NCBI GenBank assembly: GCA_025146925.1
Contig: CP102260.1
Span: 1,847,389-1,911,388, forward strand
From: [Bacteroides] pectinophilus
GTDB taxonomy: Bacteria > Bacillota > Clostridia > Lachnospirales > Lachnospiraceae
DNA length: 64,000 nucleotides
Direction: 5' to 3'
Shown piece after piece: positions 7,811 through 52,074 of this stretch. Position 1 is the stretch's first letter. Each line of letters opens with the position of its first letter. The translations under genes and the position numbers were made by a program. A model generated the notes under the pieces. The model saw nothing but the letters and a program-made list of their open reading frames with translations, was not told where the DNA came from and did not search any database.

Positions 7811-10800
7811 TGAATTCAATCAGCAAAACATACAGACTCGGTATCGACATCGGTTCAACTACCGTCAAGATTGCCGTAATCGATGAAGCTAACAACATTA
7901 TGTTCTCTGATTATGAGCGGCATTTTGCCAATATCCAGGAGACACTGCAGGGACTTCTTACCAAAGCAGTCAGTGAGCTTGGTGAATTTGATGTATACCC
8001 TGTAATTACAGGTTCAGGCGGACTTACTCTTGCCAAGCATCTTGAAGTGCCTTTCACACAGGAGGTCGTTGCTGTATCTACTGCACTGCAGGACTATGCT
8101 CCGCAGACAGATGTAGCCATAGAGCTTGGCGGCGAGGATGCCAAGATAATATATTTCACTAACGGAATTGACCAGCGTATGAATGGTATCTGCGCAGGTG
8201 GTACAGGCTCATTCATTGACCAGATGGCTTCTCTTCTTCAGACTGATGCAAGCGGTCTGAATGAATACGCCAAAAATTATAAGTCAATATACCCTATTGC
8301 CGCAAGATGCGGTGTATTCGCCAAGTCAGACATACAGCCTCTTATCAACGATGGTGCTACTAAGGAAGACCTTGCAGCATCTATATTCCAGGCTGTAGTC
8401 AACCAGACAATAAGCGGTCTTGCATGTGGTAAGCCAATCAGAGGCAATGTTGCATTTCTTGGCGGTCCTCTGCATTTCCTTTCAGAGCTTAAAGCTGCAT
8501 TTGTAAGAACACTTTCTCTTACTCCCGAGCAGACGATAGCTCCTGACCATTCACATCTTTTTGCAGCTGTCGGTTCTGCCATGAATTATAAGGAAGACGT
8601 ATGTGTTCCCGTAGAATCAATAATAAAGAAGCTTGCAGGCAAGATTAAGATGGATTTTGAAGTTGCCCGCATGGAGCCTCTCTTTGAAAATGAGATTGAC
8701 TACGCAGACTTTACCGCAAGACATAACGTACATAAGGTTAAGACCGGTGACCTTGCTGCATATGAAGGCAACTGTTATCTCGGTATTGATGCAGGTTCAA
8801 CAACAACCAAGGTTGCACTTGTCGCTGAGAACGGAGACCTTCTCTACTCCTTCTACAGCAGTAATAACGGTAATCCTCTTGCCACAACAATAAAGGCTAT
8901 CAAGGATATTTACAGTAAGCTTCCTCCACGCGCCAAGATTGTGCAGTCTTGTTCAACAGGTTATGGTGAAGCGCTTATTAAGGCTGCCCTTCTTCTTGAT
9001 GAAGGCGAGGTTGAGACTGTTTCCCATTACTATGCAGCCGCATTCTTTGATCCTGACGTTGACTGTATCATAGATATCGGCGGTCAGGACATGAAATGCA
9101 TCAAGATAAAGAACCAGACTGTAGACAGTGTCCAGCTTAATGAGGCATGTTCTTCAGGCTGCGGTTCATTTATAGAGACATTTGCGAAGTCACTTAATTA
9201 TTCAATTACGGATTTTGCACAGGAAGCTCTCTTTGCCGAGCATCCTATTGACCTTGGTACACGCTGCACCGTATTCATGAATTCAAAAGTTAAGCAGGCT
9301 CAGAAGGAAGGTGCATCAGTTGCCGATATATCTGCCGGTCTTGCTTACTCAGTAATAAAGAACGCTCTTTATAAGGTTATCAAGATTGCCGACCCTAAGG
9401 ATCTCGGTTCACATATCGTTGTACAGGGCGGTACTTTCTACAATGATGCCATTTTAAGAAGCTTTGAGAAGATTACCGGCGTCTCCGTAATCCGTCCGGA
9501 TATTGCCGGTATTATGGGTGCTTTCGGTGCTGCCCTTATCGCCCGCGAGCGTTATGACGGAATCTCTGATTCCTCAATGCTTAGCATCGATAAGATTAAT
9601 GCACTCACAGTTGAGACAAGAATGACAAGATGTAAGGGCTGTACCAACAACTGCCACCTTACAATCAACAGATTCTCCGGTGGCCGCCAGTTCATCACAG
9701 GCAACCGCTGTGAACGCGGACTCGGTCATGAGAAGAATAAGGAGAATATACCTAATCTCTTTGATTATAAGCTTCACAGGCTGTTTGATTATGAGCCGCT
9801 TACTGCCGATAAAGCTCCACGTGGTGTTGTAGGTATTCCGCGTGTTCTTAATATGTATGAGAATTATCCTTTCTGGTATACATTCTTCACACAGCTCGGA
9901 TACCGTGTAGTACTCTCACCTGAATCAAGCCACAAGCTCTATGAGCTCGGTATTGAATCAATTCCAAGTGAATCAGAGTGTTATCCTGCTAAGCTTGCGC
10001 ACGGACATGTAACATGGCTTATAAGACAGGGCGTCAGGTTCATCTTCTATCCTTGTATTCCATATGAGCACAAGGAGATTGAGAATACCAACAACCACTA
10101 CAACTGCCCAATCGTTACTTCTTATGCCGAGAATATAAAGAATAACGTAGAGGAGCTTGTAACTGAGCACATAGATTTCCGTAACCCATTCCTTACATTC
10201 GAGAGCCTTCAGGTTATGTCAAAGCGCCTTGTAGAAGAATTCAGGGCTGAGATACCTGAGAAGGAGATTAAGGCTGCCGCCAAGGCTGCATGGCTTGAGC
10301 TTCTTCAGGCAAAAGACGATGTCCGCAGGAAGGGTGAGGAGACTCTTGAGTACCTTGAGAAGACAGGCAGGCGCGGAATAGTTCTCGCCGGCCGTCCTTA
10401 CCACATTGACCCTGAGATTAACCACGGTATCCCTGAGCTTATCAATTCATTTGGTATCGCAGTGCTTACAGAAGATTCAATCTCACACCTCGGCAAGGTT
10501 GAACGTCCTCTTATCGTAATGGATCAGTGGATGTATCATTCAAGACTTTATGCTGCTGCAAGTTATGTTGCAACTAAGGATAACCTTGACCTGATACAGC
10601 TTAACTCATTCGGCTGCGGTCTTGATGCCGTAACCACAGATGCAGTCAATGACATCCTTACTAAGGCAGGCAAGATTTACACCGTCCTTAAGATTGATGA
10701 GGTTAACAACCTTGGTGCTGCCAGAATCCGTGTACGTTCACTTATCGCAGCACTCCGTGTACGTGATTCCAGGCACTACAAGAGACACATTGAATCCCCT

Positions 10801-12048
10801 GCTTTCAAGCGCGTGGAATTCACACCTGAGATGCGCAAGAACTATACTATTCTCTGCCCTCAGATGTCACCTATACATTTTGACCTGTTAGGCCCGGCAC
10901 TTTCATCATGCGGATATAATTTTGAAGTGCTTGACAATGATAACAAGTCATCTATTGACGTTGGACTCAAATATGTTAATAATGATGCCTGCTACCCTTC
11001 ACTTATGGTTGTAGGCCAGATAATGAGCGCAGTCCTTTCCGGCAGATACGACCTCACAAGGACTGCCATAATCATAACACAGACTGGCGGAGGATGCCGT
11101 GCATCCAACTATATCGGATTCATCAGACGCGCCCTCATAAAGGCCGGACATCCTGAGATTCCTGTAATATCACTCAGTGCGCAGGGGCTTGAGACTAACT
11201 CAGGTTTCTCATACGACTATATGATGCTTAAGAAGGCCATGATGGCAGTTGTGTACGGCGACGTATTTATGAACGTCCTGTACCGCACACGTCCATATGA
11301 GGCTGTTCCCGGCTCAGCCAACGCTCTCCATGAGAAATGGAAGAACATCTGTGTCGAACAGCTTGTAAAAGACAAAGTAAGCATGCGCGAATATAAGAAG
11401 AATATATATGCGATTGTGAAGGATTTTGACGAACTTCCTCTTCTTGATATCAAGAAGCCCCGCGTAGGCATCGTAGGTGAGATTCTTGTTAAGTTCCTTC
11501 CTTCAGCCAACAATTATCTTGTTGATCTGCTTGAATCAGAGGGTGCAGAAGCTGTAATGCCTGACCTTATGGGCTTCCTTCTCTACTGCTGTGAGAATGC
11601 CAACTTCAAGCATAAGTATCTGGGAACGCCTGCCAAGTCAGCAATAATTAACAACTTTGTTATTACATTCCTTGAATGGTTCCGTAAGGATGCCAAGGCT
11701 GCGCTCCAAGCAAGCAGGCGCTTCACAGCTCCGTCAACTATTAAGGAGACATCAGCTGCTGCCAAAGATATCGTATCATTAGGCAACCAGACCGGTGAAG
11801 GATGGCTTCTTACAGGTGAGATGATAGAGCTTATCCATAACAATGTGCCTAATATTGTCTGCTGTCAGCCATTTGCATGTCTTCCTAACCATATTGTAGG
11901 TAAGGGTGTTATCAAAGAACTCCGTGCAGCATATCCTGATGCCAACATAATCGCAGTGGATTATGATCCGGGTGCAAGTGAAGTTAACCAGCTTAACAGA
12001 ATTAAGCTTATGCTCTCGACAGCACAGAAGCAGCTTAATCAGCAATAA
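7811..12048 (+). CDS. Large fusion protein: two BadF/BadG/BcrA/BcrD-type (ASKHA) activase ATPase domains + 2-hydroxyglutaryl-CoA dehydratase D-component-like (HgdB/BcrBC-like) domain
   Basis: Two repeats of [11 protein letters not shown] / [11 protein letters not shown] ATPase signatures (about aa 20-300 and 335-600). C-terminal ~800 aa carry the CoA-dehydratase-like fold with a Cys-rich segment (CKGCTNNC). Start placed at 7811 after GGGAGG RBS. Confidence 0.85.
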
Positions 12049-39176: not shown

Positions 39177-39788
39177 TTAAATCATGGCAAGCTTCTTAAG
39201 TGCCGCCTTAATAAGCTGTTCACTGTCCATTGAATCAGCACCATCGACCATATTAACAGCCCTTGCCGCCTCACTTCTTCCGTATCCGAGAGCAACCAGC
39301 GCCTGTACTGTGTCATTCCTTGCATCTCCTGCCGGAAGGTCGTCAACCTCTTCATGTGACAGCCTTATTTCAAATGCTTCTTCGAGCTTCAGCTTATCTT
39401 TCAGTTCTATTATCATTCTCTGTGCTGTCTTAGCACCTATTCCCGGTGCCCTGGAGATTGCCTTAACATCATCTGACAATACCGCGAATCTGAGGTCATC
39501 CGGTGTTATCGTCGAGAGTATTGCAAGAGCTCCCTTAGGGCCTATTCCATTAACTGTGATGAGGAGTCTGAATATATCAACATCTTCCCTGTTAATGAAA
39601 CCATACAGTGTCATAGAGTCCTCTTTGACATTGAGATATGTATGAATCTTAACCATGCTCCCACACGAAGGCATCTTATCTATAACCGTCTGCGGCACAA
39701 TAATATTCATTCCGATTCCGGACGAAGTCTCAACAACTATTGATGTCTCCGATACTTCCGTCAGTTCTCCTTTTATATAGGAAATCAT
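39177..39788 (-). CDS. ruvA: Holliday junction DNA-binding protein RuvA
   Basis: 203 aa; HhH motifs (GIGPKGA, GIGAKTA). Confidence 0.9.
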
Positions 39789-41098
39789 TCAGCAACCTCC
39801 CTGCTTCCCAGAAGATAATTAATAAACTGCTGCGCGGTTCTTCCCGATATTCCGCCGTGGCTTAACTCCCACTTGTTAGCTTCCGCACAAAGTTCTTCAT
39901 CAGACATCTTAATTCCTGCTTTCCTTGCAAGCCCCGTAACAATGCCAAAGTACTCCTTCTGTGAAGGCTTGGAGTAATTAATAGTCACACCGAATCTGTT
40001 GACGAGGGAGAGCTTCTCCTCCATAGTATCTGACTTATGCATTCCGTTATCCATCTCAACATCATCTCTGTCATTCCATGTCTCCTTAATAAGGTGACGT
40101 CTGTTAGATGTTGCATATATAAGGATATTATCAGGTTTTGTCTCCACACCACCCTCTATAACTGCCTTAAGGAACTTATATTCAATCTCAAATTCCTCAA
40201 AAGAAAGGTCATCCATATATATTATAAATCTGTAATTACGATTCTTGATTGCCGCTATCACATTAGACAGATCTTTAAACTGATGCTTATATATCTCAAT
40301 CATCCGAAGGCCCCTGTCATAATATTCATTGACAATCGCCTTAATACTTGTTGACTTACCTGTACCACTGTCACCAAACAGCAGGACGTTATTGGCCTTA
40401 CGCCCCTCAACAAATGCTTCCGTATTATCCACAAGCTTCTTCTTCTGGATCTCATATCCTATAAGATCTGAAAGCATAACCTTGTCCATATTATTAATAG
40501 GATTAAATACAATATCATCGCCACGGCTGCTTATTCTGAACGCCTTATTAAGTCCGAACATTCCAACACCGTAATCCTTATAGAACTGTGTTACATGTGC
40601 AAAGAATTCTTCTTCATCAGCTGCGTTCTCAAGCTTCTCACTAAGGGCCTGTACCTTCTCGCTTACATTCTTATTATACATAAGCTCTTTCTTACCTATT
40701 GCCTTATAGTTACAGAGTCTTGTAAAGCAGTCAATTCCAAGTGCTTTCTCAATGGGTTTAAAATCAAAATTAAACAATTCCATAAATACACTGAAGTCAT
40801 TCTTGGCAAACGCATTAACACTGCCATCATTAGCCCCGACCTTCTCACATGTAATACTGAATGGATTCTCATTGGTTATAAGAAGAAATGTAAGATAGTT
40901 GTGCCATAGATTCTTATCAAATCCGTAATCAGTTGCCACAACAAGGAGCTTGCGCACCTGTGCATATATGTCATTAATAAGCTCTCCGTTAGTTGCCTCA
41001 CCACTTGTAAATCTTCTGTAAATATCCCCAAGATTATACAGGATGCTGTCCTTATCAAGATTTCCGTAAATAATCAGCTTTGCTATAATATTATGCAT
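39785..41098 (-). CDS. DUF815-family AAA+ ATPase, 4-nt overlap with ruvA start
   Basis: Walker [13 protein letters not shown] and Walker [12 protein letters not shown]. Start at MHNIIAK after GGAGG. Stop overlaps ruvA ATG (ATGA). Confidence 0.7.
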
Positions 41099-41452
41099 CA
41101 CAGCCTCCAATCGTATGTTTGTTCTATTTTTACTATTAATAATACCGCACATTATATAAAACTTCAATATAATAATTGCAATTCAATTATATAAATGTTG
41201 TGCATTTAATTATGTATTTAAAATAGGACTTTCCTTATAACAATATTAATGGTATTATATCTATCGGTGAATCAACGGTTATCTCTGAATTAGTTATATT
41301 TATGTGATAATCGCAATTTTTTTACATAAAATTTAGTAAAAATGATGATTGACTTTACTTTTATCAATGTTATAATCATTCCGATGTGGTTGTAGCATGT
41401 AGGGGAACATCAAAGCAAAAGCTTTTATCACGAAAGGAGTTTTAAAAAGACA

Positions 41453-42736
41453 ATGGCATTCATTAATGGTTTCAATTTATTTGTCTTCGCAATTCTTACA
41501 CTTTTGTATTTTTACCAGATTATCTATGTTATCGTAGCTCTGGTAGGTGAGAAGAAGAAAGATCATTTTGATGAAGAGGCTAAGACATTACACCGTTTTG
41601 CATTTGTTATAGCAGCGCGTAACGAAAGCTCTGTAATAGCGAATCTGATTAAGAGTATCCGCCGTCAGAATTATCCGGCCGAGCTCATTGATGTAATTGT
41701 TATTGCTGATAACTGCACGGATAATACTGCAGAGATTGCAAGAAGCAACGGAGCAATCGTGCTTGAGCGTTTCAATCATATGCTTGTTGGTAAGGGATAC
41801 GCTCTTGATTATGCATTTAACCGTATTGACAGTGAGATGGGCGGCGTTGAGAAGTATGACGGTTATTTCATTTTCGATGCTGATAACATTATTGACCGTA
41901 ACTATGTTCGCGAGATGAACAAAGTATTTGATAAGGGTTACCGTGTAATCACAAGTTACCGTAACTCTAAGAACTATGACACTAACTGGCTTACAGCAGG
42001 ATATGGTCTCTGGTTCCTGCGTGAGGCTAAGTTCCTCAACAACCCACGAATGATGATGAATACAAACTGCGCCGTATCAGGAACCGGTTTCCTTATGAGC
42101 AGTGCTATTGTTAAGGCTAATGGCGGATGGAAGTACCACCTCCTTACAGAGGATATTGAATTCTCTATCGTAAGTGCCATTAAGGGTGAGCGTATCGGAT
42201 ATTGTGAGAAGGCAATTCTCTACGATGAGCAGCCTACTTCATTCAAGCAGTCATGGAATCAGCGCATGCGCTGGTCAAAGGGCTTCTACCAGGTAATGTT
42301 CAAGTATGCAGGGCAGCTTATTTCTACAATGTTCAACAAGAAAGAGCGTTTCACATCATGCTATGACATGCTTATGACTATCGCACCTGCTACACTGCTT
42401 ACAATTACATGTATCCTTGTTAACCTTGCAGGTCTTGTAACATGTGTTATTGAACCTTCAATTGTTCCGGTACTTTTCCCGGTAGCAGCAAAGTCACTTC
42501 TCTTCACATTTGTTAATATGTATGCAATGCTCTTCTTCGTAGGACTGCTTACAATTATTACAGAATGGAAGCAGATAAGATGCAGCGGATTTAAGAAGTT
42601 TTTGTATCTCTTCTCATTCCCTGTTTACATCTTTACATATATTCCGATTGCTATTGTAGCACTCTTCAAGAAGGTTGAGTGGAAGCCAATCGCCCATACA
42701 TGTGTAAAGACTGTTGAGGAGATGCAGGCTAAGTAA
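41453..42736 (+). CDS. Family 2 glycosyltransferase, processive type (DxD, QxxRW) with N- and C-terminal TM helices
   Basis: DNCTDNT / FDADN (DxD) and QRMRW motifs; multiple C-terminal TM segments as in PgaC/IcaA/cellulose-synthase-like enzymes. Confidence 0.8.
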   Translation: MAFINGFNLFVFAILTLLYFYQIIYVIVALVGEKKKDHFDEEAKTLHRFAFVIAARNESSVIANLIKSIRRQNYPAELIDVIVIADNCTDNTAEIARSNGAIVLERFNHMLVGKGYALDYAFNRIDSEMGGVEKYDGYFIFDADNIIDRNYVREMNKVFDKGYRVITSYRNSKNYDTNWLTAGYGLWFLREAKFLNNPRMMMNTNCAVSGTGFLMSSAIVKANGGWKYHLLTEDIEFSIVSAIKGERIGYCEKAILYDEQPTSFKQSWNQRMRWSKGFYQVMFKYAGQLISTMFNKKERFTSCYDMLMTIAPATLLTITCILVNLAGLVTCVIEPSIVPVLFPVAAKSLLFTFVNMYAMLFFVGLLTIITEWKQIRCSGFKKFLYLFSFPVYIFTYIPIAIVALFKKVEWKPIAHTCVKTVEEMQAK

Positions 42737-42848
42737 TTTGCAATAATATGACCATCACATAACTTAAAAATGCCATCAGTTTGTTCATTAAACAAGTACT
42801 GATGGCATTTTTAATATTTATATAATTTATATTGAAAGGTACTAACAT

Positions 42849-44432
42849 ATGAATAATCCTACAATCGCTGATTTTCTATCGACATTTAATAAAATTATAA
42901 GCTCATTTGTAAATAATGACAATGAAAATATTACACTATACTCCTCCGTTCTGAAAGATACATACAATGTTCTCAACAGCAACGAACGCAGCACTTGTTT
43001 TCAATATATTTCTGATTTCTTCAATGAGCAAAATGATACATATATAACTATATTTTTCATGTCATATCTGTTAAAGACACTCAACTCTGCTGAAGCCATC
43101 ATCCATATACAACATACAATATCCCAATCCGGTATTTCTCCTATTGATGCCCTGAACATAATATTTCAGATGAGCTCTTTTTCATTTTCAACAGATTTAA
43201 AAATTGATACGGCTGACTTTTACAAAGAACAACTTTCAATATATCAGAATAATATAAGCAAGCTCAATTCACTCACGGAATCATATACATTCGTACCATA
43301 TGATGTGCGCAACAAAGACAGAATAGCAATCATGTGCCGCATGTTATACTCTGACAGACATGCACCTACAGTTATTATCATAAATCTGTTTAACTGGTTA
43401 AAAAAGCTTGGGTATGAAGTATGCCTCTTTATAGAATATATGGGTCAAATTCAGGATGAGAATGTAATTAACTGGTATAGACCTTCTATAGAGAATAAAA
43501 TTTTTTCTCAGGCTGGTGATTTTAATATAAATTATCTTGGCGTAGATATCAAAGGACATAATATTGTTTTCTCTAACAGCAACTATGAGCAGATGGCACG
43601 TCGCACTTTTGATTTGATTTATGATTATAATCCGTTATTTGTAATCAATGTAGGTGGATGCAATCCTATCGCTGACCTGTGCAACAACATCACAACTGTA
43701 TGCTGCATGCCGTGTATCAACAAACCTGCCCTCAGTACATCTTCTATCTATATCAGATATTTTCCGTACACAGAAGATGATGACAGGATATACAATGATT
43801 TATTGCTCAATTACCAGCATGTATATGATATGCCATTCGTCGAAGAATTGTCAGGCTCCAACGGATGTATTCAGGTCAAAAGTGATTATGGCATAGATGA
43901 AGATAAATTTGCTATTATAATAGCAGGCAACCGTCTCGACAAAGAGATTCGCCAAAGATTCATACAACTTCTGAATGATATCTCTTCAACTGAAGATAAT
44001 GTAGTATTTGTCTTTATCGGTGACTGCCCTTTATTAAAAAACACACTTAAAGATTGTGACTTCTATAACAAATGTGTATTTACAGGGGCTGTAAGTAATT
44101 TTAAGGGTGCTGTAAGTATTGGTGATTTATTTCTTAATTCTCCAAGACAGGGCGGTTCGACCGGCGCATATTATGCGATTGAATGCGGAATACCTGTATT
44201 AACACTTCCCAGCTGTGACGTTGCAAGTGTAGGTAACGCATTCACATGTCACACAATAGATGAGATGAGCGATATCATTCACAGATACATGCACGATTCT
44301 GAATATATGAATCAGCAGATTCAAAACTGCAGGAGTAGTTTTGAAAAGATATGTTCATGCAAAGATAATCTGCCTTCAATTACATCATTTATCAGCAAAC
44401 TTAAGGAATATATGAATAATGGGGGGAGGTAA
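42849..44432 (+). CDS. Hypothetical 527-aa protein with C-terminal GT-B (GT1/GT4-like) glycosyltransferase domain and novel N-terminal half
   Basis: C-terminal FVFIGDCP...NSPRQGGSTGAYYAIECGIPVLTL resembles the Glycos_transf_1 E-x7-E region. Very AT-rich codon usage compared with flanks. Confidence 0.5.
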   Translation: MNNPTIADFLSTFNKIISSFVNNDNENITLYSSVLKDTYNVLNSNERSTCFQYISDFFNEQNDTYITIFFMSYLLKTLNSAEAIIHIQHTISQSGISPIDALNIIFQMSSFSFSTDLKIDTADFYKEQLSIYQNNISKLNSLTESYTFVPYDVRNKDRIAIMCRMLYSDRHAPTVIIINLFNWLKKLGYEVCLFIEYMGQIQDENVINWYRPSIENKIFSQAGDFNINYLGVDIKGHNIVFSNSNYEQMARRTFDLIYDYNPLFVINVGGCNPIADLCNNITTVCCMPCINKPALSTSSIYIRYFPYTEDDDRIYNDLLLNYQHVYDMPFVEELSGSNGCIQVKSDYGIDEDKFAIIIAGNRLDKEIRQRFIQLLNDISSTEDNVVFVFIGDCPLLKNTLKDCDFYNKCVFTGAVSNFKGAVSIGDLFLNSPRQGGSTGAYYAIECGIPVLTLPSCDVASVGNAFTCHTIDEMSDIIHRYMHDSEYMNQQIQNCRSSFEKICSCKDNLPSITSFISKLKEYMNNGGR

Positions 44433-44478
44433 TTATGCCTATCTCCCCACACAGTATGTTTGTTATAACTATTCCGGA

Positions 44479-45027
44479 TTATTCCTCATATCTCGGCAGA
44501 TCCACAATTATTGCTTCATGATGGACTGCCGGAAGGAACTTTTCCATAACCTCTTTAGTATTAAGTCTGAGGCTTGAAGTATTAATACACGGATGACATC
44601 CAAGAGATTCTCCTTCAAGGACTTCTCTGTCTATCAGCAGCTGCACGTTATTGTCCTTATCATTCATAAGTCCCATTATCGATACAGAGCCGGGTGTTAT
44701 ATCAAGAAATTCCTGCATATATTCCTCATCCGCAAATGATAATCTTGCAGAGCCTATCTGCTTAGACAGATCCTTTGTCTTAAACACCTTATCTCCCGGC
44801 ATCATAAGCATATAAAACTGCGTCTTCTGTCTGTTGCATAAAAACAGATTCTTGCATATAAGTGTACCAAGAATGCTGTCTATACAATTGCACACTTCCA
44901 TTGTTGTAGCCGGTTCATGGTCTGTTCTGTAATATTCCATACCCAGGCTGTCAAGGAGGTCATACACACGTATCTCCTTATCAAGTCTGCCTTCTTTATT
45001 CTCAGGTCTTCCTTTGATCAATTTCAT
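44479..45027 (-). CDS. YbaK/ProX-family aminoacyl-tRNA deacylase
   Basis: Length and GHPCINTSSL / DITPGSVS motifs fit the YbaK/EbsC fold. Start at MKLIKG. Confidence 0.65.
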   Translation of the reverse strand: MKLIKGRPENKEGRLDKEIRVYDLLDSLGMEYYRTDHEPATTMEVCNCIDSILGTLICKNLFLCNRQKTQFYMLMMPGDKVFKTKDLSKQIGSARLSFADEEYMQEFLDITPGSVSIMGLMNDKDNNVQLLIDREVLEGESLGCHPCINTSSLRLNTKEVMEKFLPAVHHEAIIVDLPRYEE

Positions 45028-45067
45028 AACAATCCCCATTCCTGCGCTGTCTCTTGCACATATCAAG

Positions 45068-45523
45068 TTATACAAAAAATCCTGCCATGTATAAACCCGC
45101 GCACACAATTCCCGCACCAAACGTCAGTGAACGTGTAAGCCTGTCATGATTATGCAGCTTAAGTGAAGCTTTGTAACATATAATCACCTGAAGCTTCTGC
45201 CCGGTATTATATTTTTTCATTACATACGCTTCTCCGGTCATCAACTTACCGTCCATTGTGTAATAAAAGCCTATGGTCCTTATCTTGCCGCCTTTGGCTC
45301 CAACGTGTTCCTCATACCTTTCACAGGTCACTTCCTGACTGTGATAAAAGTAAAAAAAGAAAAATGAGCACATCAGCAAGCCATATGCCAATGCTGATGT
45401 AAAAGTGGCAAAAGCCGTTCTGCACACTGAATTAACAGTAATGATGAATACCATGCCTCCAACTATAAGCAGAGCTATTATAAGCTTAACGGCAAAACAA
45501 ATTATGTGAGTTATCTTTTCCAT
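45068..45523 (-). CDS. Small membrane protein (TM - beta-rich domain - TM; DUF3592-like topology)
   Basis: Hydropathy only. Confidence 0.4.
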   Translation of the reverse strand: MEKITHIICFAVKLIIALLIVGGMVFIITVNSVCRTAFATFTSALAYGLLMCSFFFFYFYHSQEVTCERYEEHVGAKGGKIRTIGFYYTMDGKLMTGEAYVMKKYNTGQKLQVIICYKASLKLHNHDRLTRSLTFGAGIVCAGLYMAGFFV

Positions 45524-45531
45524 AATAGCAG

Positions 45532-46728
45532 TTAAAATGTCCCTGCAATCGTTTTTGCAAGTGCATCGATATCTTCATTCTGAGCCTGCTTTACGGATGA
45601 CTTTATTGTCACCTTCTGTTCAAGGATATTCAGGTTCTTACATTTGCCAAGAAGCTCCGCCGTCTGTTTTGCTGTCATTGCCGCCCATGTACCGTTCTCA
45701 ATCAGTGCAACCGTGCGATTCTGGAAATTATGTGCAGCAAGGTCATGCAGCAGATCTTCCATCTTCACGAATATTCCTCCATTGTAGGTTGCTGATGCAA
45801 ATACAACATGGCTGTATTCAAATGTTGCCGCAACTATCTCAGATGCCGGTACAACAGAAACATCAAACATCTTAGTTCTTATACCAAGCTCATTGAGCCT
45901 GCAGGCAAGAATCTCCGCCGCATTCTCTGTATTGCCGTATATTGAGCCATATGCAATGACAACACCCTGTTTCTCAGGCTCATACCTGCTCCATTTGTCA
46001 TATGCTGCAATATAATCAGCAAAATCCCTGCGCCATACAAATCCGTGAAGCGGACATATCATTGATATCTCAACTGCAGATGCTTTTTTAAGAAGTGCCT
46101 GCACCTGTGCTCCGTACTTGCCTACAATATTGGTGTAATATCTTCTTGCTTCATCAAAATAATCCCTGTAAAAATCTACCTCGTCAGCAAACAGTGCTCC
46201 GTTAATTGCTCCAAAGCAGCCGAATGCATCTGCCGAGAAAAGAATCCTGTCTGTCTTATCATATGTTACCATTACCTCAGGCCAGTGAACCATAGGTGCC
46301 ATTATAAATGTAAGATTATGCTTTCCTGTAGAAAGCTCGTCTCCTTCACTGACAAGCTTTAACTTTGAATCAATGTCAAAATTGAAGAACTGCTTAATCA
46401 TTCCTGCAACCTTGGCATTAGTCACTATAACAGTCTCCGGATGTCTTCTCGTAAGATCTTCAATCATTGCACAGTGATCCGGCTCCATGTGATTAACTAT
46501 CAGATAATCAAGTGGTCTGCCATTAAGCGTGTGTTCAATATTCTCAAAGAATATACCGCCAACTGCCTTATCAACGGTATCTAACAGAACCGTCTTTTCA
46601 TCAAGCAGCAGATATGAATTATAAGATACCCCGTAAGGAACCTTGTAAACGCCCTCAAATAGTGAAAGACGGCGGTCATTGCCACCTACCCACACAAGGT
46701 CTTCTGTAACATTTCTTGTACAATACAT
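45532..46728 (-). CDS. fprA: Flavodiiron protein (FprA/rubredoxin-oxygen oxidoreductase family: metallo-beta-lactamase + flavodoxin domains), copy 1
   Basis: HxExDH-like di-iron motif (NHMEPDHC), C-terminal flavodoxin domain. Start MYCTRN. Confidence 0.85.
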   Translation of the reverse strand: MYCTRNVTEDLVWVGGNDRRLSLFEGVYKVPYGVSYNSYLLLDEKTVLLDTVDKAVGGIFFENIEHTLNGRPLDYLIVNHMEPDHCAMIEDLTRRHPETVIVTNAKVAGMIKQFFNFDIDSKLKLVSEGDELSTGKHNLTFIMAPMVHWPEVMVTYDKTDRILFSADAFGCFGAINGALFADEVDFYRDYFDEARRYYTNIVGKYGAQVQALLKKASAVEISMICPLHGFVWRRDFADYIAAYDKWSRYEPEKQGVVIAYGSIYGNTENAAEILACRLNELGIRTKMFDVSVVPASEIVAATFEYSHVVFASATYNGGIFVKMEDLLHDLAAHNFQNRTVALIENGTWAAMTAKQTAELLGKCKNLNILEQKVTIKSSVKQAQNEDIDALAKTIAGTF

Positions 46729-46747
46729 AATCATTACCTCCTGAATG
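45600..46747. repeat. Direct repeat copy A (~1.15 kb, ~99% identical to 50925..52074)
   Basis: Aligned by eye; only scattered SNPs (e.g. aagaagctcc vs aagaatctcc). Identity ends at ...cctcctgaat / gagt vs aaat. Confidence 0.85.
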
Positions 46748-46866
46748 AGTTCCATGCTCACGCCGCTCCTCATTTCCGAATTTGTTTGCACTCATTATAT
46801 CATATAAAACATATTTTTTTATAAAAATAGTTAAATTAATATTTTTTTCTCTAAAAGTATACTATT

Positions 46867-47252
<386 letters not shown>

Positions 47253-47269
47253 CTACAGTACAAAATTTC

Positions 47270-47305
47270 CAAAAAAGGGAGCACCATTTCTGATGCTCCC
47301 TTTAT
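47270..47305. terminator. Intrinsic terminator downstream of the surface-protein gene (GGGAGCAUCAGAAAUGGUGCUCCC UUUUUU on minus strand)
   Basis: Perfect 8-bp stem with T-runs on both sides. Confidence 0.65.
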
Positions 47306-47362
47306 TATTGCTCTATGCTTATACCAATTTATGCAATTATATTAAGATAACTTTCTCTTTTC

Positions 47363-48778
47363 TTATGCTCTCTTTCCTGTAAGAACCATTATCATTCCTA
47401 ACGCAGATGCCATAACAAGCACAATCATCATAATTGGAGCAGTATCGGCTGTCTGCGGTGATTTTGCAGTTTCCTGTGCTGCTTCATTCTGATTTTCAGG
47501 CGCTTTAAGTCCAGCATCCTGTCCAGCATCTGTTATGTCAGCATCCGGCTGGACAATTTCTGCATTAGTTACAAATCCTGCATACAATACTATATTGCCA
47601 GACTGTTCTTCTGATACTAAAGATAGCTTTCTGGTAAGCCCGGCATCACTATACCAGCCTGTAAATGTATATCCAGCCTTAACTGCCGGTTTCAGACTGC
47701 TTACGCCCGTCCCATATTCATAATGAGCCGGATTAGAGATATCATTAACGCCTCCATTGAGGACATATGTTATACTGAAAGTCTCTGGTTCGTCATCTTC
47801 ATCTGATTCATCTGGTGTCTGATTTGATATTGGCACCGGATTCGGGTTTAGATTCGGTATTGCAGTAAACTTCGCATACAAATCAACGTCACCTGTCTGT
47901 GTATCTGATATTGATGTCACTCTTGCTGTTAAAGCTGCATCACTGTACCAGCCATCGAATGTATATCCTGTCCTGGAAGCGTCCGTCAGTGACGCTACTC
48001 CTGTACCTTCTGTATATGTTGATGGATTGCCAGCTCCATTGCTGCCGCCGTCAAGGTGATAATTTATTCTGCTTATTACAGGTGCAGCCGTAAACTTAGC
48101 TACAAGATTAATATCCTGCGATTCTGTTTTAGATATCATGCTGACTCTTGTTGCAAAAGTATCGTCTGTATACCATCCTTCAAATACATAACCAGGTGCA
48201 TCTGCATCAATGAGTGTAATATCCTCCTTGCCAACATAATATCCGGCAGGATTTGAATTGCTCATTGTAACACCTGATGGCAGACCTGAAGCAGCGTATG
48301 TTATATTCTTCTTCTCGTAAGGCACTGCCTGTAATGAAAGCTCAGCACTCCATCCAGCTGACGCATATACATATGTTACCTTCCACTCTTTAAACTGCTC
48401 ATATGGAATAGCCCTTGTTCCTGACAGCTCTGAATAATCCGGAACTGTCAATGCATAATAATCACCCTCTGTATCTGATGCATTACCTGCAGTGCTTGTA
48501 AATGTCTCAATTAGTGTAGTTCCATCAGTATCGATGTAATTAACAATATATCCTATGTAAGGACTTGAGCCGCAATACAGCTTAATATTATCTCCTGCAA
48601 GCACCCTGTCAGATTTGTCCGGATCCATCTGAATATTATTCGTAAGATCACATCCAGCATCGGAAACCTTGTAAGTTGCAGCATTCGCAATATATGGCAT
48701 TGTGCAATATACCAGCATGACACACATAATACAGAATGCAGCAAATCTTTTCTTTCTCTCCCTTATTAATTCCTTCAT
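47363..48778 (-). CDS. Cell-surface protein: signal peptide, N-terminal domain, three Listeria-Bacteroides (Flg_new) repeats, acidic/Pro-rich linker, C-terminal TM anchor
   Basis: Repeats GYVFEGWYTDDTFATRV..., GYTFDGWYSDAALTARV..., GYTFTGWYSDAGLTRKL.... Signal peptide FAAFCIMCVMLVYC...ANA. C-terminal hydrophobic segment + KRA. Confidence 0.75.
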   Translation of the reverse strand: MKELIRERKKRFAAFCIMCVMLVYCTMPYIANAATYKVSDAGCDLTNNIQMDPDKSDRVLAGDNIKLYCGSSPYIGYIVNYIDTDGTTLIETFTSTAGNASDTEGDYYALTVPDYSELSGTRAIPYEQFKEWKVTYVYASAGWSAELSLQAVPYEKKNITYAASGLPSGVTMSNSNPAGYYVGKEDITLIDADAPGYVFEGWYTDDTFATRVSMISKTESQDINLVAKFTAAPVISRINYHLDGGSNGAGNPSTYTEGTGVASLTDASRTGYTFDGWYSDAALTARVTSISDTQTGDVDLYAKFTAIPNLNPNPVPISNQTPDESDEDDEPETFSITYVLNGGVNDISNPAHYEYGTGVSSLKPAVKAGYTFTGWYSDAGLTRKLSLVSEEQSGNIVLYAGFVTNAEIVQPDADITDAGQDAGLKAPENQNEAAQETAKSPQTADTAPIMMIVLVMASALGMIMVLTGKRA

Positions 48779-48797
48779 TCTTCCTCCTGCTATTAAA

Positions 48798-49499
48798 TTA
48801 TTTTGCTCTCACAATATATCTCAAATGGCGCATGCCATCCTTGACCATTCTTAATTTTGACTTCCTTTTATACCTGCATCTTCTGAGCTTCACAGGCACC
48901 TCGCCAATATCGAGACATGCTTTTTTTGCGGCAGCAATCATCTCTGTTGCAAATTCCATCCCGTCTGTCTGGAAGTCAAGTATCTGCGCTGAAGTACGCG
49001 TAATTCCTCTTAATCCGCAATGAAAATCATATATATCGCACTGGAATCTTTTGCCTGCGCACCATGATAAAATACGACCTCCAATCACATGCGATAACTG
49101 TATGCTCCCCTTTTCAAACCCGCCCTCGTAGCGGTTTCCTATAACAACATCGCACTTGCCGGATGCCAGTACAGCATACATCAGTCCTATTCTGTCAAAA
49201 TTATATGACGTATCGCAGTCTCCTATAATAATCACATCGCCTCTGCTCTGCCTTATGCCTGCCTTGATTGCACTTCCGTACCCTTTTGACTGTTCATATA
49301 CGACAACTGCGCCATGCTTCAGTGCAGCCTCGGCAGAGTTGTCTGTCGAGGCATTATCAACAACAATTATCTCTCCATCAAGAGCACATCTGTCTAAAAA
49401 TGTTTTTGCTTCATCTACACAATATCCTACACTTTGTTCTTCATTAAGACATGGCATTATGATTGACAGACTAAGACTTTGTTCTTTTTGCAGCTCCAT
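48798..49499 (-). CDS. Family 2 glycosyltransferase, GtrB/DPM1-like (polyprenol-phosphate sugar synthase type)
   Basis: LSIIMPCLNEE, VVDNASTDNS, GDCDTSY (DxD-type) motifs; ~230 aa, no TM C-terminus. Start at MELQKE after GGAGGTGG. Confidence 0.8.
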   Translation of the reverse strand: MELQKEQSLSLSIIMPCLNEEQSVGYCVDEAKTFLDRCALDGEIIVVDNASTDNSAEAALKHGAVVVYEQSKGYGSAIKAGIRQSRGDVIIIGDCDTSYNFDRIGLMYAVLASGKCDVVIGNRYEGGFEKGSIQLSHVIGGRILSWCAGKRFQCDIYDFHCGLRGITRTSAQILDFQTDGMEFATEMIAAAKKACLDIGEVPVKLRRCRYKRKSKLRMVKDGMRHLRYIVRAK

Positions 49500-50811
49500 C
49501 TGCAAACCACCTCCAGTCGACTAACGAACCAGTTATCAGAAACATTGCCAGAATTGTTGCAATCTGTGCCCTGTATGTAAAGAAACAATGTAGATATGAA
49601 TGATTATGCAGTACCAGATATCTCGCATATGGTATAAGTCCAACAATCCCATATATAATAATACTATGCCAGCAAATATCATTACTATGGTAAACATATC
49701 CTATATAAATAATAAACAAAATAACTGCTGCAAACAGCCACACTCCTGCTTTGCCATATCCTGCCGGAAACAGACATTTTATATTATTAACAACTGCTCC
49801 TGTAATATACTGTACAGTACCAACGCCTATATCTCCGCCAATACGCTCGTCCACATGCTCCGTTACATACGGCAGCATACTGGTATGCATCACTGCAGAT
49901 GCTGTAATCCACTTGGCACACCATGTTCCGGCATATCCGGCTGTCCATGTCACAGCCGCTTTTACAGGTATTTTCACCGGACTGAAGCTTTCTTTATATC
50001 TTCCATTCATTCCAATGCAGATTACAATAAGCAGCGGCACTGACAATGTCACGGTCTCGGTAGTAAGAAAGTCAAAATAATTTGTTATCATCCCGCTGAG
50101 TAAGAATATGATTCCTATATTATACCATCTGCCTTTATCGCAGCTTCTGACTGCACACATAGCGGCCACCGGCATGATTATAAAAACCCATGTATATTCC
50201 AACGAATATGGTACAAACCATACCGCCGCTGCAATATATCCCACAGCCAGACCTACTGCTGCATAATATGCTTTTCTTCTTATGATCATTACAATAAGTG
50301 CCGCATTTAGAATTGCTACCATAACCGCATTAAAAAAATATATATTTTTAAGCTGCATAAACATCAGCATAGGTCTTACGATAACTGTTGAGCCATGCCA
50401 GTATCTCATGTATTGCTGGTTAGCCGCAGGATGCTTTGTAACTGCCTGATACAGGTTGTCATTCTCATTAAGATACGATGTATGGTAATACGAAGACATC
50501 ATAACAGATTCAAGCGGATTTTCCTCATCATACTGGTAAGCTATGCCTAAAAGTATCGAATCTGCATATCTGTCTATTCTGCTTCCTTCTGCCCCATCAA
50601 TAACAGTACCAAACAGTTCGCAATTTTTCAGATACTGCGCCGACTCCTGCATATTATCCTGTATTGCAGACACAGGAATCAGAGCTGTCAGCACAAGAAG
50701 CAGTATCATAACTCCTATGCCTGCAGCAAATACTCCTGTGTACATTATTACATTTTTAAAAATGCTTTTCCCCTTATGTCTGCAATCCGTATAGCCCTTA
50801 TTAAGTTTCAT
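49471..50811 (-). CDS. Polytopic membrane protein (>=9 TM, one large extracytoplasmic loop); candidate GT-C-type glycosyltransferase partner of the GtrB-like GT2
   Basis: Hydropathy; overlaps the GT2 gene start by ~29 nt (translational coupling). Confidence 0.4.
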   Translation of the reverse strand: MKLNKGYTDCRHKGKSIFKNVIMYTGVFAAGIGVMILLLVLTALIPVSAIQDNMQESAQYLKNCELFGTVIDGAEGSRIDRYADSILLGIAYQYDEENPLESVMMSSYYHTSYLNENDNLYQAVTKHPAANQQYMRYWHGSTVIVRPMLMFMQLKNIYFFNAVMVAILNAALIVMIIRRKAYYAAVGLAVGYIAAAVWFVPYSLEYTWVFIIMPVAAMCAVRSCDKGRWYNIGIIFLLSGMITNYFDFLTTETVTLSVPLLIVICIGMNGRYKESFSPVKIPVKAAVTWTAGYAGTWCAKWITASAVMHTSMLPYVTEHVDERIGGDIGVGTVQYITGAVVNNIKCLFPAGYGKAGVWLFAAVILFIIYIGYVYHSNDICWHSIIIYGIVGLIPYARYLVLHNHSYLHCFFTYRAQIATILAMFLITGSLVDWRWFADGAAKRTKS

Positions 50812-50853
50812 CTGTCCCCTTATCCACATATTAAATATTATCTATATCCCTGC

Positions 50854-52056
50854 TTACTCTGCCAATGTCTCTGCAATAGCCTTTGCAAGTTCCACTACAG
50901 CCTCATTCTGCTCCTGCTTGACAGCAGACTTTATTGTCACCTTCTGTTCAAGGATATTCAGGTTCTTACATTTGCCAAGAATCTCCGCCGTCTGTTTTGC
51001 TGTCATTGCCGCCCATGTACCGTTCTCAATCAGTGCAACCGTGCGGTTCTGGAAATTATGCGCAGCAAGGTCATGCAGCAGATCTTCCATCTTCACGAAT
51101 ATTCCTCCATTGTAGGTTGCTGATGCAAATACAACATGGCTGTATTCAAATGTTGCCGCAACTATCTCAGATGCCGGTACAACAGAAACATCAAACATCT
51201 TAGTTCTTATACCAAGCTCATTGAGCCTGCAGGCAAGAATCTCAGCCGCATTCTCTGTATTGCCGTATATTGATCCATATGCAATGACAACGCCCTGCTT
51301 CTCAGGCTCATACCTGCTCCATTTGTCATATGCTGCAATATAATCAGCAAAATCCCTGCGCCATACAAATCCGTGAAGCGGACATATCATTGATATCTCA
51401 ACTGCAGATGCTTTTTTAAGAAGTGCCTGCACCTGTGCTCCGTATTTGCCTACAATATTGGTGTAATATCTTCTTGCTTCATCAAAATAATCCCTGTAAA
51501 AATCTACCTCGTCAGCAAACAGTGCTCCGTTAATTGCTCCAAAGCAGCCGAATGCATCTGCCGAGAAAAGAATCCTGTCTGTCTTATCATATGTTACCAT
51601 TACCTCAGGCCAGTGAACCATAGGTGCCATTATAAATGTAAGATTATGCTTTCCTGTAGAAAGCTCGTCTCCTTCACTGACAAGCTTTAACTTTGAATCA
51701 ATGTCAAAATTGAAGAACTGCTTAATCATTCCTGCAACCTTGGCATTAGTCACTATAACAGTCTCCGGATGTCTTCTCGTAAGATCTTCAATCATTGCAC
51801 AGTGATCCGGCTCCATGTGATTAACTATCAGATAATCAAGTGGTCTGCCATTAAGCGTGTGTTCAATATTCTCAAAGAATATACCGCCAACTGCCTTATC
51901 AACGGTATCTAACAGGACCGTCTTTTCATCAAGCAGCAGATATGAATTATAAGATACCCCGTAAGGAACCTTGTAAACGCCCTCAAATAGTGAAAGACGG
52001 CGGTCATTGCCACCTACCCACACAAGGTCTTCTGTAACATTTCTTGTACAATACAT
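50854..52056 (-). CDS. fprA: Flavodiiron protein (FprA family), copy 2; only 38 nt downstream of cbiO/nikO
   Basis: Protein ~identical to copy 1 except C-terminal ~25 aa (…AVVELAKAIAETLAE vs …IDALAKTIAGTF). Confidence 0.85.
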   Translation of the reverse strand: MYCTRNVTEDLVWVGGNDRRLSLFEGVYKVPYGVSYNSYLLLDEKTVLLDTVDKAVGGIFFENIEHTLNGRPLDYLIVNHMEPDHCAMIEDLTRRHPETVIVTNAKVAGMIKQFFNFDIDSKLKLVSEGDELSTGKHNLTFIMAPMVHWPEVMVTYDKTDRILFSADAFGCFGAINGALFADEVDFYRDYFDEARRYYTNIVGKYGAQVQALLKKASAVEISMICPLHGFVWRRDFADYIAAYDKWSRYEPEKQGVVIAYGSIYGNTENAAEILACRLNELGIRTKMFDVSVVPASEIVAATFEYSHVVFASATYNGGIFVKMEDLLHDLAAHNFQNRTVALIENGTWAAMTAKQTAEILGKCKNLNILEQKVTIKSAVKQEQNEAVVELAKAIAETLAE

Positions 52057-52074
52057 AATCATTACCTCCTGAAT
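50925..52074. repeat. Direct repeat copy B (~1.15 kb)
   Basis: See copy A. Confidence 0.85.

Follow-up and report, generated by a model that had tools for sequence, protein, structure and literature searches.

A core membrane glycosyltransferase gene and an adjacent, lineage-variable TPR-like/GT-B gene in [Bacteroides] pectinophilus: probably two independent genes

Locus layout and base composition

The window (the whole 64,000-nucleotide stretch of [Bacteroides] pectinophilus DNA analysed here) contains, between the DUF815–ruvAB genes and a ybaK-type tRNA_edit gene, two open reading frames on the same strand, gene 1 (41453–42736) and gene 2 (42849–44432, 527 amino acids), the second of which starts 112 bp after the first. 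The flanking genes are those named in a preliminary description of the sequence, which had also remarked on the absence of pga-, ica- or bcs-type accessory genes and of a c-di-GMP receptor; indeed, the neighbours are DUF815, ruvAB and ybaK, no such accessory gene or PilZ domain was found near the two genes, and an Rfam search of the sequences upstream of both gave no riboswitch, whether for c-di-GMP or another ligand. The features discussed below are the following.

41349–41376, + strand: candidate σ70-like promoter of gene 1, TTGACT, 16 nt spacer and TG-extended TATAAT (consensus scan, 11 of 12 matches)
41453–42736, + strand: gene 1, membrane-integrated family-2 glycosyltransferase of the processive-synthase type, 427 amino acids (Pfam, motifs, hydropathy, AF2 model, synteny)
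42739–45588, no strand assigned: lineage-variable segment with gene 2, the ybaK-type gene and a 151-aa ORF (blastn, alignment, gene tables)
42764–42814, + strand: terminator-like hairpin with a perfect 17-bp inverted repeat, −24.8 kcal/mol, z −5.7 (folding)
42849–43283, + strand: gene 2 residues 1–145, all-helical TPR-like repeat domain of seven helices (predicted model)
43311–43868, + strand: gene 2 residues 155–340, N-terminal Rossmann-like GT-B domain (model and family conservation)
43884–44432, + strand: gene 2 residues 346–527, C-terminal nucleotide-sugar-binding GT-B domain with terminal helices (sub-threshold Pfam match, profile, conservation)

The stretch from 41.2 to 44.4 kb had been described as AT-rich as a whole, and a GC and codon-adaptation profile had been proposed as a check. 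With the 53 genes of the window as reference, gene 1 is ordinary in composition: its GC content is 0.409 (z −0.63), its GC3 is 0.432 (z +0.95), and its codon-adaptation index lies at z −0.15. Gene 2, in contrast, has a GC content of 0.347 (z −2.9), a GC3 at z −1.7 and a codon index at z −1.9, third in rank among the 53 genes, and is thus poorly codon-adapted. The two spacers are also AT-rich (24–25% GC); the description therefore applies to gene 2 and the spacers but not to gene 1.

The candidate promoter of gene 1 is located in a divergent spacer of 285 bp with 25% GC, which is common to the DUF815–ruvAB operon. Between the genes, a simple terminator scan of 41.1–44.6 kb called no terminator, and folding revealed the bulged hairpin listed above, with an A-run before it and UUUUUAAUAUUU (a T-run) after it; in the sister species, another hairpin occupies this position. 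Neither a convincing −35 element nor a clear promoter of its own was found upstream of gene 2 by the consensus scan, so that gene 2 may be co-transcribed with gene 1 by read-through.

The membrane-integrated glycosyltransferase

Gene 1 matches the Pfam family Glyco_tranf_2_3 (5e-25) and contains DNCTD (D86), DAD (142–144), TED (232–234) and QRMRW (270–274); the D, DxD, TED and QRMRW residues are invariant among 22 orthologues. Hydropathy indicates one N-terminal and three to four C-terminal transmembrane helices (about 4–5 in total). The AF2 model is of medium confidence (pLDDT 71), and its top Foldseek matches are hyaluronan synthase (HAS) and BcsA (probability 1.0, TMq up to 0.64), which span the whole chain including the transmembrane region. 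The motifs, the topology and the predicted fold thus bear out the earlier assignment of gene 1 to the QxxRW family-2 glycosyltransferases of the PgaC/HAS/BcsA type. The strongest NCBIfam profiles are EpsU-like (126 bits) and PgaC_IcaA (TIGR03937; 70 bits, the cut-off being 422), both far below their equivalog cut-offs, and the CelA profile gives 24.9 bits where 699 are required.

In Lachnospira and further genera, too, gene 1 adjoins DUF815–ruvAB, and does so as a solitary gene. It is a core Lachnospiraceae gene, vertically inherited and syntenic across genera.

Predicted overall structure of the gene 2 product

The Pfam signal in gene 2 is confined to the C-terminal third, where Glycos_transf_1 matches residues 346–495 with 23.0 bits, short of the gathering cut-off of 26.4; the C-terminal half-signature of GT1/GT4 type noted previously is therefore present yet sub-threshold, and the PF00534 gathering threshold is passed by some relatives but not by the window protein. 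No Pfam GT41 or TPR match was obtained at E ≤ 1, hydropathy gave no membrane segment, and a direct sequence search of the PDB gave no match, whereas the profile of the gene 2 family matched BshA among the PDB sequences (5e-6).

The predicted model (pLDDT 85) consists of a TPR-like helical domain followed by a complete GT-B fold, that is, two Rossmann-like domains with a cleft between them, and its best full-length structural matches are GT41 protein glycosyltransferases. The view of the product as GT-B-like with a novel N-terminal half is accordingly correct as to GT-B but not as to a novel fold: in the model, the N-terminal ~330 residues comprise the TPR-like domain and a Rossmann domain of the usual GT-B kind, the conservation of which is poor. 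The helical domain (residues 1–145), presumed to be the acceptor-recognition domain, is found throughout the family, although its conservation is poor. In the N-terminal Rossmann-like domain, H171-A-P173 directly after the first strand is family-invariant, as is P262; His171 may serve as the catalytic base, although any role given to a single residue is putative here. The C-terminal domain carries the motifs G360-N-R-L, G391, D426-L-F-L-N430-S-P-R433-Q-G435-G-S and T452-L-x-x-C-D457-V-A. All family-invariant residues are kept in the window copy, and its nucleotide-binding loop reads NSPRQGGS against a family consensus of NPPRxGGG, with P431S and G437S at positions that are ~94% conserved. The public annotation of gene 2 begins at M108.

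The gene 2 family and its genomic settings

An exhaustive profile search placed gene 2 in a family that has no curated model and comprises 760 or more clusters at 50% identity; a word-indexed search had given just 12 family proteins. In the Firmicutes, 34 of 35 loci lie amid flagellin, Maf, nonulosonic-acid or S-layer genes (flagellin in 16, Maf in 17 and NeuB in 16). The standard arrangement of such an island is flagellin, a GlfM-like gene, Maf, nonulosonic-acid genes, the gene 2 homologue and DegT, and these islands also hold a PseG-like Glyco_tran_28_C gene. A DegT aminotransferase gene directly abuts the gene 2 homologue in 25 of 31 loci. Many homologues are located immediately 3′ of Maf, and at least three proteins of the family are fused to Maf. 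A gene-1-like family-2 glycosyltransferase occurs in none of the 44 loci of the family that were analysed.

The window copy has no flagellin, Maf, nonulosonic-acid, S-layer or DegT partner within the 64 kb and is an orphan, separated from the partners of its relatives. The Maf neighbour of its closest relative is of the Roseburia type, and the best 120 matches to this Maf include none from [B.] pectinophilus. An Azospirillum homologue is likewise an orphan with unrelated, non-glycan neighbours, so that the family is not limited to flagellin islands; no FlmG-like TPRs were detected by Pfam in the proteobacterial relatives. A literature search gave nothing specific on flagellin glycosylation in Lachnospiraceae and was uninformative on motility or flagellin of [B.] pectinophilus. 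The preliminary description had taken two results as speaking against it, namely a composition that does not deviate and the placement of gene 2 in a well-characterized family with a known substrate; the composition does deviate for gene 2, and gene 2 falls in a family that is uncharacterized yet has a well-defined genomic context.

Evolution of the segment

In a blastn comparison with the locus of the sister species, homology stops at 42738, at the stop codon of gene 1, and restarts at 45589. Gene 1 is 92% identical there and gene 2 is absent, the segment being occupied by a 100-aa ORF and a barnase-type ribonuclease gene. The 100-aa ORF was considered as a remnant of gene 2 and rejected, as the two share no similarity. 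In both sampled, diverged [B.] pectinophilus lineages, gene 2 is adjacent to gene 1 on the same strand. Around gene 2, neither an integrase nor a transposase was found, and a search for repeats and mobile-element signatures gave just the terminator hairpin and short matches of chance size.

Between the lineages, gene 2 is 86% identical, whereas the neighbouring proteins are 95–99% identical. Its dN/dS is 0.17, compared with 0.02–0.09 for the neighbours and 0.018 for gene 1, a difference from gene 1 of about ten-fold; being well below 1, the value indicates purifying selection, although weaker than that on the neighbours. The 527-aa ORF is intact in many cluster members from metagenomes. Since gene 1 is vertical and syntenic and the composition is off in gene 2 alone, the proposal of a horizontally acquired two-gene island is not supported. 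Gene 2 was probably inserted later, 3′ of the terminator of gene 1, in the [B.] pectinophilus lineage.

Discussion

Taken as a whole, the locus is probably best explained by two independent genes, and not by an island or operon: a core membrane family-2 glycosyltransferase and a later-inserted modular protein glycosyltransferase. Gene 2 most likely encodes the latter, a protein-glycosylating activity being suggested by its predicted architecture and the setting of its family. Its product would be a soluble TPR-like plus GT-B enzyme, built from the same modules as the GT41 O-GlcNAc transferases. The helical domain may recognize the cytoplasmic acceptor, either a protein or a glycan linked to one, and transfer of a nucleotide-activated amino sugar or a nonulosonic-type sugar may fall to the GT-B domain. 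GT4 enzymes mostly act on sugars or lipids and seldom on proteins; on the side opposed to a protein glycosyltransferase, the C-terminal domain of gene 2 is GT4-like by sequence, as seen with BshA, and the TM-scores to GT41 structures are moderate, at ~0.5.

The tight linkage to DegT could equally be compatible with sugar-nucleotide processing or glycan extension by the gene 2 family. As a partner of DegT, the family would then be a GT-B enzyme other than a protein glycosyltransferase, for instance one adding a second amino sugar onto a Maf-attached nonulosonic acid, or an NDP-sugar hydrolase. We regard this as somewhat unlikely: the conserved N-terminal helical repeats and the full-length GT41 matches fit protein recognition, the Maf fusions place the family on the flagellin-modifying enzyme itself, and the islands already contain the PseG-like gene.

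For gene 1, we infer processivity from its likeness to known synthases. This predicted synthase would most likely use a UDP-sugar to polymerize a β-linked glycan at the membrane's inner face, and the glycan may leave through the transmembrane helices of the enzyme itself. Gram-positive single-protein synthases polymerize and translocate without partner proteins, so that the absence of export or partner genes at gene 1 is not unusual. The D,D,D,QxxRW signature also occurs in GT21 enzymes, and this, together with the weak matches of gene 1 to Glyco_transf_21 (1.4e-3) and NodC, its small number of transmembrane helices and its occurrence as a single housekeeping-like core gene without partners under extreme purifying selection, would suit a QxxRW-type glycolipid or oligosaccharide synthase resembling the GT21 ceramide/diacylglycerol glucosyltransferases or NodC, which would act in the biosynthesis of the membrane or of a lipoteichoic-acid anchor and not as a polymer exporter; such a role is unlikely, however, as the best structural matches over the whole chain are hyaluronan and cellulose synthases and the strongest profiles are of the EpsU and PgaC/IcaA types.

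The window copy of gene 2 might be functionless and slowly decaying, left over from a flagellin or S-layer glycosylation island that has been lost, as could be read from the missing partner genes, the raised dN/dS and lower identity, the two loop substitutions and the public annotation that starts only at M108. The intact ORF in metagenome members, the purifying selection and the retention of every family-invariant residue argue against decay and make a relic distinctly improbable.

That gene 2 primes, decorates or extends a polymer that the gene 1 synthase makes and exports, a reading for which the adjacency in two diverged lineages, the common strand, the 112-bp spacer, the lack of a clear promoter and the need for another donor or acceptor (if gene 2 is active without its DegT, Maf and nonulosonic-acid neighbours) could be adduced, is very doubtful in view of the gene 1 orthologues that do without gene 2 in the sister species as well as in all other genera, the 0 of 44 family loci with a gene-1-like enzyme, the strong hairpin with its U-run, the differing composition and selection, and a gene 2 product that has no membrane segment and a helical domain of the protein-binding type. 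The minimal exopolysaccharide synthase pair of the preliminary description is not supported, given the same 44 loci, the hairpin and the solitary gene 1 elsewhere, and also the relatives of gene 2 in flagellin, S-layer or nonulosonic-acid glycosylation islands.

Returning to two independent genes, it is possible, although we hold it only tentatively, that gene 2 represents an unrecognized modular class of TPR-like plus GT-B enzymes that works with Maf and a dedicated DegT aminotransferase in building the flagellin, and at times S-layer, glycans of gut Lachnospiraceae, and that the [B.] pectinophilus copy was uncoupled from this machinery and recruited to a new acceptor. Roseburia, Agathobacter and Butyrivibrio are the genera named for such a class, and the new acceptor may be a different surface protein or what the neighbouring synthase makes.

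With the novel minimal exopolysaccharide machine not holding, a false lead is removed and two others take its place. One is a nearly invariant, single-gene HAS-like synthase beside ruvAB throughout the Lachnospira/[B.] pectinophilus clade, a clade of abundant gut fibre degraders. The other is a sizeable, uncharacterized glycosyltransferase family that is embedded in the Maf machinery for flagellin glycosylation in Lachnospiraceae and at times fused to it. Antibodies in Crohn's disease prominently target the flagellins of Lachnospiraceae, so that the enzymes decorating them are relevant to host recognition, and the gene 2 family offers a concrete candidate for existing systems for the reconstitution of flagellin glycosylation.

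Comparison with known systems

Gene 1 resembles the membrane-integrated synthases of COG1215, among them class I HAS, BcsA and PgaC/IcaA, in its GT-A domain with D, DxD, TED and QxxRW, its flanking transmembrane helices and its amphipathic QxxRW helix, with TMq values of 0.55–0.64 to HAS (Chlorella virus/Xenopus) and ~0.51 to BcsA; however, its identity to HAS and BcsA is 13–16% and it has fewer transmembrane helices. Unlike the PgaC/IcaA system, it does not reach the equivalog score and has no PgaD/IcaD, deacetylase or porin neighbours, and unlike the Bcs system it has neither PilZ nor a BcsB partner and does not reach the CelA cut-off.

The EX7E motif is characteristic of the C-terminal domain of GT4 enzymes. 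It does not hold in the gene 2 family, in which Glu is not conserved at the first of the two positions and the second position varies; compared with retaining GT4 enzymes such as BshA, gene 2 also has the extra N-terminal helical domain and the family-specific invariant HxP after the first strand. The Maf (MptE-like) flagellin nonulosonic-acid transferases, with GlfM, occur in the same islands as the gene 2 relatives, with Maf as a neighbour or fusion partner, but Maf is unrelated to gene 2 in fold and family, and gene 2 has no PF01973 match.

The GT41 enzymes (XcOGT of Xanthomonas, 2jlb and 2vsn; Thermobaculum OGT; SPINDLY; HMW1C-like NGT) share with gene 2 the helical repeats N-terminal to a GT-B fold and can be superposed on it as a whole, although at TM-scores of ~0.5 the identity is ~10% and the C-terminal domain is nearer to GT4 in sequence. 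FlmG of Caulobacter and Brevundimonas is a TPR plus GT-B flagellin pseudaminyl/legionaminyl transferase (PMC7591256; bioRxiv 10.1101/2022.03.25.485807) and, by its published description, is soluble with N-terminal helical repeats and a C-terminal GT-B domain, as is gene 2. The two differ in that FlmG has 596 residues with ~313 residues of Pfam-recognizable TPRs, whereas gene 2 has ~145 residues of helices and no TPR match. An FlmG-like linkage to flagellin and Pse/Leg biosynthesis genes is absent from the window copy within 64 kb but is present in the gene 2 family, which, compared with FlmG, co-occurs with Maf rather than replacing it.

The locus and its base composition

The two open reading frames, with the motifs noted in the preliminary description, lie on the same strand, flanked by the divergent DUF815–ruvAB operon on one side and by a convergent ybaK-type gene on the other:

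41453–42736 (+), gene 1, 427-aa ORF, membrane GT2
42849–44432 (+), gene 2, 527-aa ORF, GT-B-like

The part of the chromosome covered by the window is of housekeeping character, with genes for TyrRS (with a T-box), PNPase, IF-2, NusA, tmRNA, SmpB, RNase R, SecG, RuvAB and the DUF815 ATPase. RuvB, RNase R and the gene 1 product have identical counterparts in [Bacteroides] pectinophilus; this species, which degrades pectin in the gut, belongs to the Lachnospiraceae and is sister to Lachnospira (PMC6767994). The mechanical call of the DUF815 ATPase ORF (39785–41167, −) begins at TTG and gives 460 aa, and the gene calls of related contigs give 437–455 aa; its real start is probably downstream of the TTG, and the divergent promoter spacer that it shares with gene 1 would then be wider.

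The pair had been proposed to form an AT-rich, horizontally acquired island. The GC and codon profile across the window bore out the AT-richness for gene 2 and the spacers, whereas the composition of gene 1 is ordinary, so that the supposed island is a single AT-rich gene with AT-rich intergenic DNA.

Base composition of the locus (z-scores relative to the 53 window genes)
Gene 1: GC 0.409; GC z −0.63; GC3 z +0.95; codon index z −0.15
Gene 2: GC 0.347; GC z −2.9; GC3 z −1.7; codon index z −1.93 (rank 3/53)
Two flanking spacers: GC 0.24–0.25

No gene of the window is more AT-rich than that for an Abi_2 (abortive-infection-like) protein (2926–3810, −; GC 0.314, z −4.1); inserted beside the tyrosyl-tRNA synthetase gene with its T-box, it is likely to be another accessory acquisition.

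The gene 2 protein

The sole Pfam signal in gene 2 is a sub-threshold Glycos_transf_1 match (aa 346–495); there is no direct sequence match in the PDB, the family has no curated model in NCBIfam and no TM segment was found in the protein. The nearest solved relative of the family profile is the GT4 enzyme BshA (5e-6). The AF2 model, with an 11-sequence family alignment as input, is confident (pLDDT 85.4, pTM 0.76) and places seven helices, arranged as helical hairpins, in aa 1–145, followed by α/β domains at aa ~155–340 and ~350–500 and by C-terminal helices. The N-terminal half, earlier called unrecognisable, does lack a sequence signal, but as modelled it is a TPR-like domain joined to the usual divergent GT-B N-domain. 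Over 139 diverse family members, H171 and P173 (right after the first strand), P262, G360, G391, N430, G435, P449 and D457 are invariant and R362, L363 and R433 are conserved at 98–99%. Conservation does not extend to the EX7E glutamates of GT4. Every 100%-conserved residue is retained in the window protein, whose NPPRxGGG loop departs from the family by P431S and G437S. In the public annotation (UWN94695.1, type strain) gene 2 starts at M108, giving 420 aa and omitting aa 1–107 (42849–43169); this start would remove most of the helical domain, and the family alignment favours the 527-aa form.

Genomic context of the gene 2 family

A word-indexed search returned only 12 relatives of gene 2, whereas an exhaustive profile search returned 2707 cluster representatives with E ≤ 1e-3, and 760 with E ≤ 1e-30; most are full-length proteins of 505–530 aa. 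A genome scan located 39 loci, chiefly in flagellated Lachnospiraceae (Roseburia, Butyrivibrio, Agathobacter, Lachnoclostridium and Acetatifactor), plus some in Proteobacteria. The individual loci agree with one another: the usual gene order runs FliS, FlgN, flagellin, a small DUF8042/GlfM-like gene, Maf, the gene 2 homologue, DegT and lastly Pse/Leg-type genes, with an S-layer-like SbsC_C protein replacing flagellin in some cases; the nearest non-self relative (40% identity) lies directly 3′ of a GlfM-like gene and a Roseburia-type Maf. Within 10 kb, 34 of the 35 Firmicutes-type loci carry a flagellar, nonulosonic-acid or S-layer marker, with Maf in 17, flagellin in 16 and NeuB in 16. Fusion proteins link the family directly to Maf (a gene2–Maf–gene2 protein of 1555 aa and two Maf–gene2 proteins); a tandem gene2–gene2 protein and fusions to DUF2920, pyruvyl-transferase or GT2 domains also occur.

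A DegT aminotransferase gene is present in 31 of these 35 loci, on the same strand and directly abutting in 25 of the 31, and is often a second DegT besides that of the nonulosonic-acid pathway. It is conceivable that the family works together with DegT in extending glycans or processing sugars, though this is rather doubtful beside the direct link to Maf. In an Agathobacter MAG (L055, ~10001–11239), four successive gene-2-like ORF segments stand in a row with three DegT-like ORFs. The segment at the match has only ~240–270 aa, so the array represents either one copy broken up by frameshifts or a gene2–DegT module that was amplified locally.

The small gene directly 5′ of Maf (~105–115 aa; weak DUF8042 match or none) was always in this position (L004 4203–4538, L006 2848–3165 and L058 184–531, contigs with related islands) and probably corresponds to GlfM, the four-helix-bundle specificity factor of Maf-2 systems (bioRxiv 10.1101/2023.12.03.569772). 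A distant homologue in the alphaproteobacterium Azospirillum soli (L049, 9245–10795) has genes for MoeA, an L,D-transpeptidase and a D-Ala-D-Ala carboxypeptidase around it, and its surroundings show no link to glycans or flagella. The association with glycosylation islands is therefore strong, not absolute, and orphans occur outside the Firmicutes too.

Gene 1

Gene 1 is a GT2 by Pfam (Glyco_tranf_2_3, 5e-25), with D86, D142xD144, T232-E-D and Q270RMRW invariant in 22 orthologues and with one N-terminal and three to four C-terminal TM helices (hydropathy and AF2 model). Sequence and fold support the earlier assignment to the QxxRW synthases of the processive type, and the enzyme would be processive. 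Its NCBIfam matches are all sub-threshold (EpsU-type, 126 bits versus a cut-off of 700; PgaC/IcaA, 70 versus 422), and its model (pLDDT 71, pTM 0.71) is closest to the Chlorella virus and Xenopus hyaluronan synthases (TMq 0.55–0.64) and BcsA; a core HAS-like synthase is the best-supported reading, a glycolipid role being unlikely. As already noted in the preliminary description, there is no pga/ica/bcs partner at gene 1, and neither a PilZ domain nor a riboswitch was found. In a monoderm, a single-protein synthase of the HasA type needs none of these, by what is established for class I hyaluronan synthases.

Gene 1 was not horizontally acquired: it has >8000 homologues, with 63–72% identity across Lachnospira and relatives (one orthologue by itself is recorded in >9600 contig-index blocks), and the divergent DUF815–ruvA–ruvB/GT2 order is kept in Lachnospira, a further genus and a sister species (protein 92% identical). 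Two B. pectinophilus lineages share 99.3% identity in this protein (dN/dS 0.018).

Gene 2 in B. pectinophilus

Nucleotide homology with the sister species stops at 42738, two bases beyond the gene 1 stop (42736), and restarts only at 45589. Where the window has gene 2, the ybaK-type gene and an ORF of 151 aa, the sister species has a 100-aa ORF and a barnase-type RNase instead; the 100-aa ORF was considered as a relative of gene 2 and proved unrelated. No mobile-element signature was found flanking gene 2. The hydrophobic 151-aa ORF (45068–45523, −; no Pfam match) is fast-evolving like gene 2 (84% aa identity, dN/dS 0.28), with poor codon adaptation (z −1.56, rank 4/53).

The whole 64-kb window is devoid of genes for flagellin, Maf, DegT, NeuB, CMP-synthetase and WbqC. 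Gene 2 diverges faster than its neighbours (86% versus 95–99% aa identity), and decay to a relic might be suspected; however, many copies of the species from metagenomes have it intact, and it is under purifying selection (dN/dS 0.17), so that it is a maintained orphan and a decaying relic is rather improbable.

A perfect 17-bp inverted repeat lies 27 nt past the gene 1 stop codon and folds into a hairpin (−24.8 kcal/mol, z −5.7), with an A-run at its flank and then UUUUUAAUAUUU; the sister species has a different hairpin in the same position. A consensus TATAAT lies 22 nt 5′ of the gene 2 ATG with no good −35 element, and gene 2 may therefore be transcribed by read-through from gene 1. Cooperation of the two proteins is nevertheless very doubtful, and the proposed minimal pair is not upheld: downstream of the syntenic GT2 in Lachnospira, the other genus and the sister species are unrelated genes, never gene 2, and a gene-1-like GT2 occurs within 10 kb in 0 of the 35 Firmicutes-type gene 2-family loci.

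Farther downstream, a strain-specific 4.1-kb insertion (46747–50863), absent from same-species contigs L001 and L002, is bracketed by a 1.2-kb direct repeat (45536–46746 and 50864–52074, 97.9% identical) formed by a duplicated flavodiiron-type gene (ODP/Lactamase_B and flavodoxin). Its genes encode a surface protein of 471 aa, which has Listeria–Bacteroides (Flg_new) repeats and ends in a TM segment, a GT2 of 235 aa and two products without a Pfam match, one of 84 aa and the other a polytopic membrane protein of 452 aa; the insertion may be a small surface-glycosylation cassette.

Comparison with known systems

The best-supported interpretation is that genes 1 and 2 are two independent genes, gene 2 having been acquired later and belonging to a GT family of glycosylation islands whose modular plan is that of protein glycosyltransferases. 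The main value of these findings is the family-level tie of gene 2 to Maf-dependent flagellin glycosylation in gut Lachnospiraceae. As a variant of the modular GT-B glycosyltransferases, the family is uncharacterised; in function its nearest precedent is FlmG, which transfers pseudaminic/legionaminic acid to flagellin and combines TPR and GT-B domains. In FlmG, flagellin is bound by the TPR domain, and donor specificity, as chimeras indicate, is set by the GT-B domain (PMC7591256; bioRxiv 2022.03.25.485807). Gene 2 is likened to GT41 and FlmG by modular plan and not by sequence criteria, and membership of either family is not claimed. The GlfM–Maf-2 system (bioRxiv 2023.12.03.569772) would explain the small gene 5′ of Maf in the loci of its relatives.
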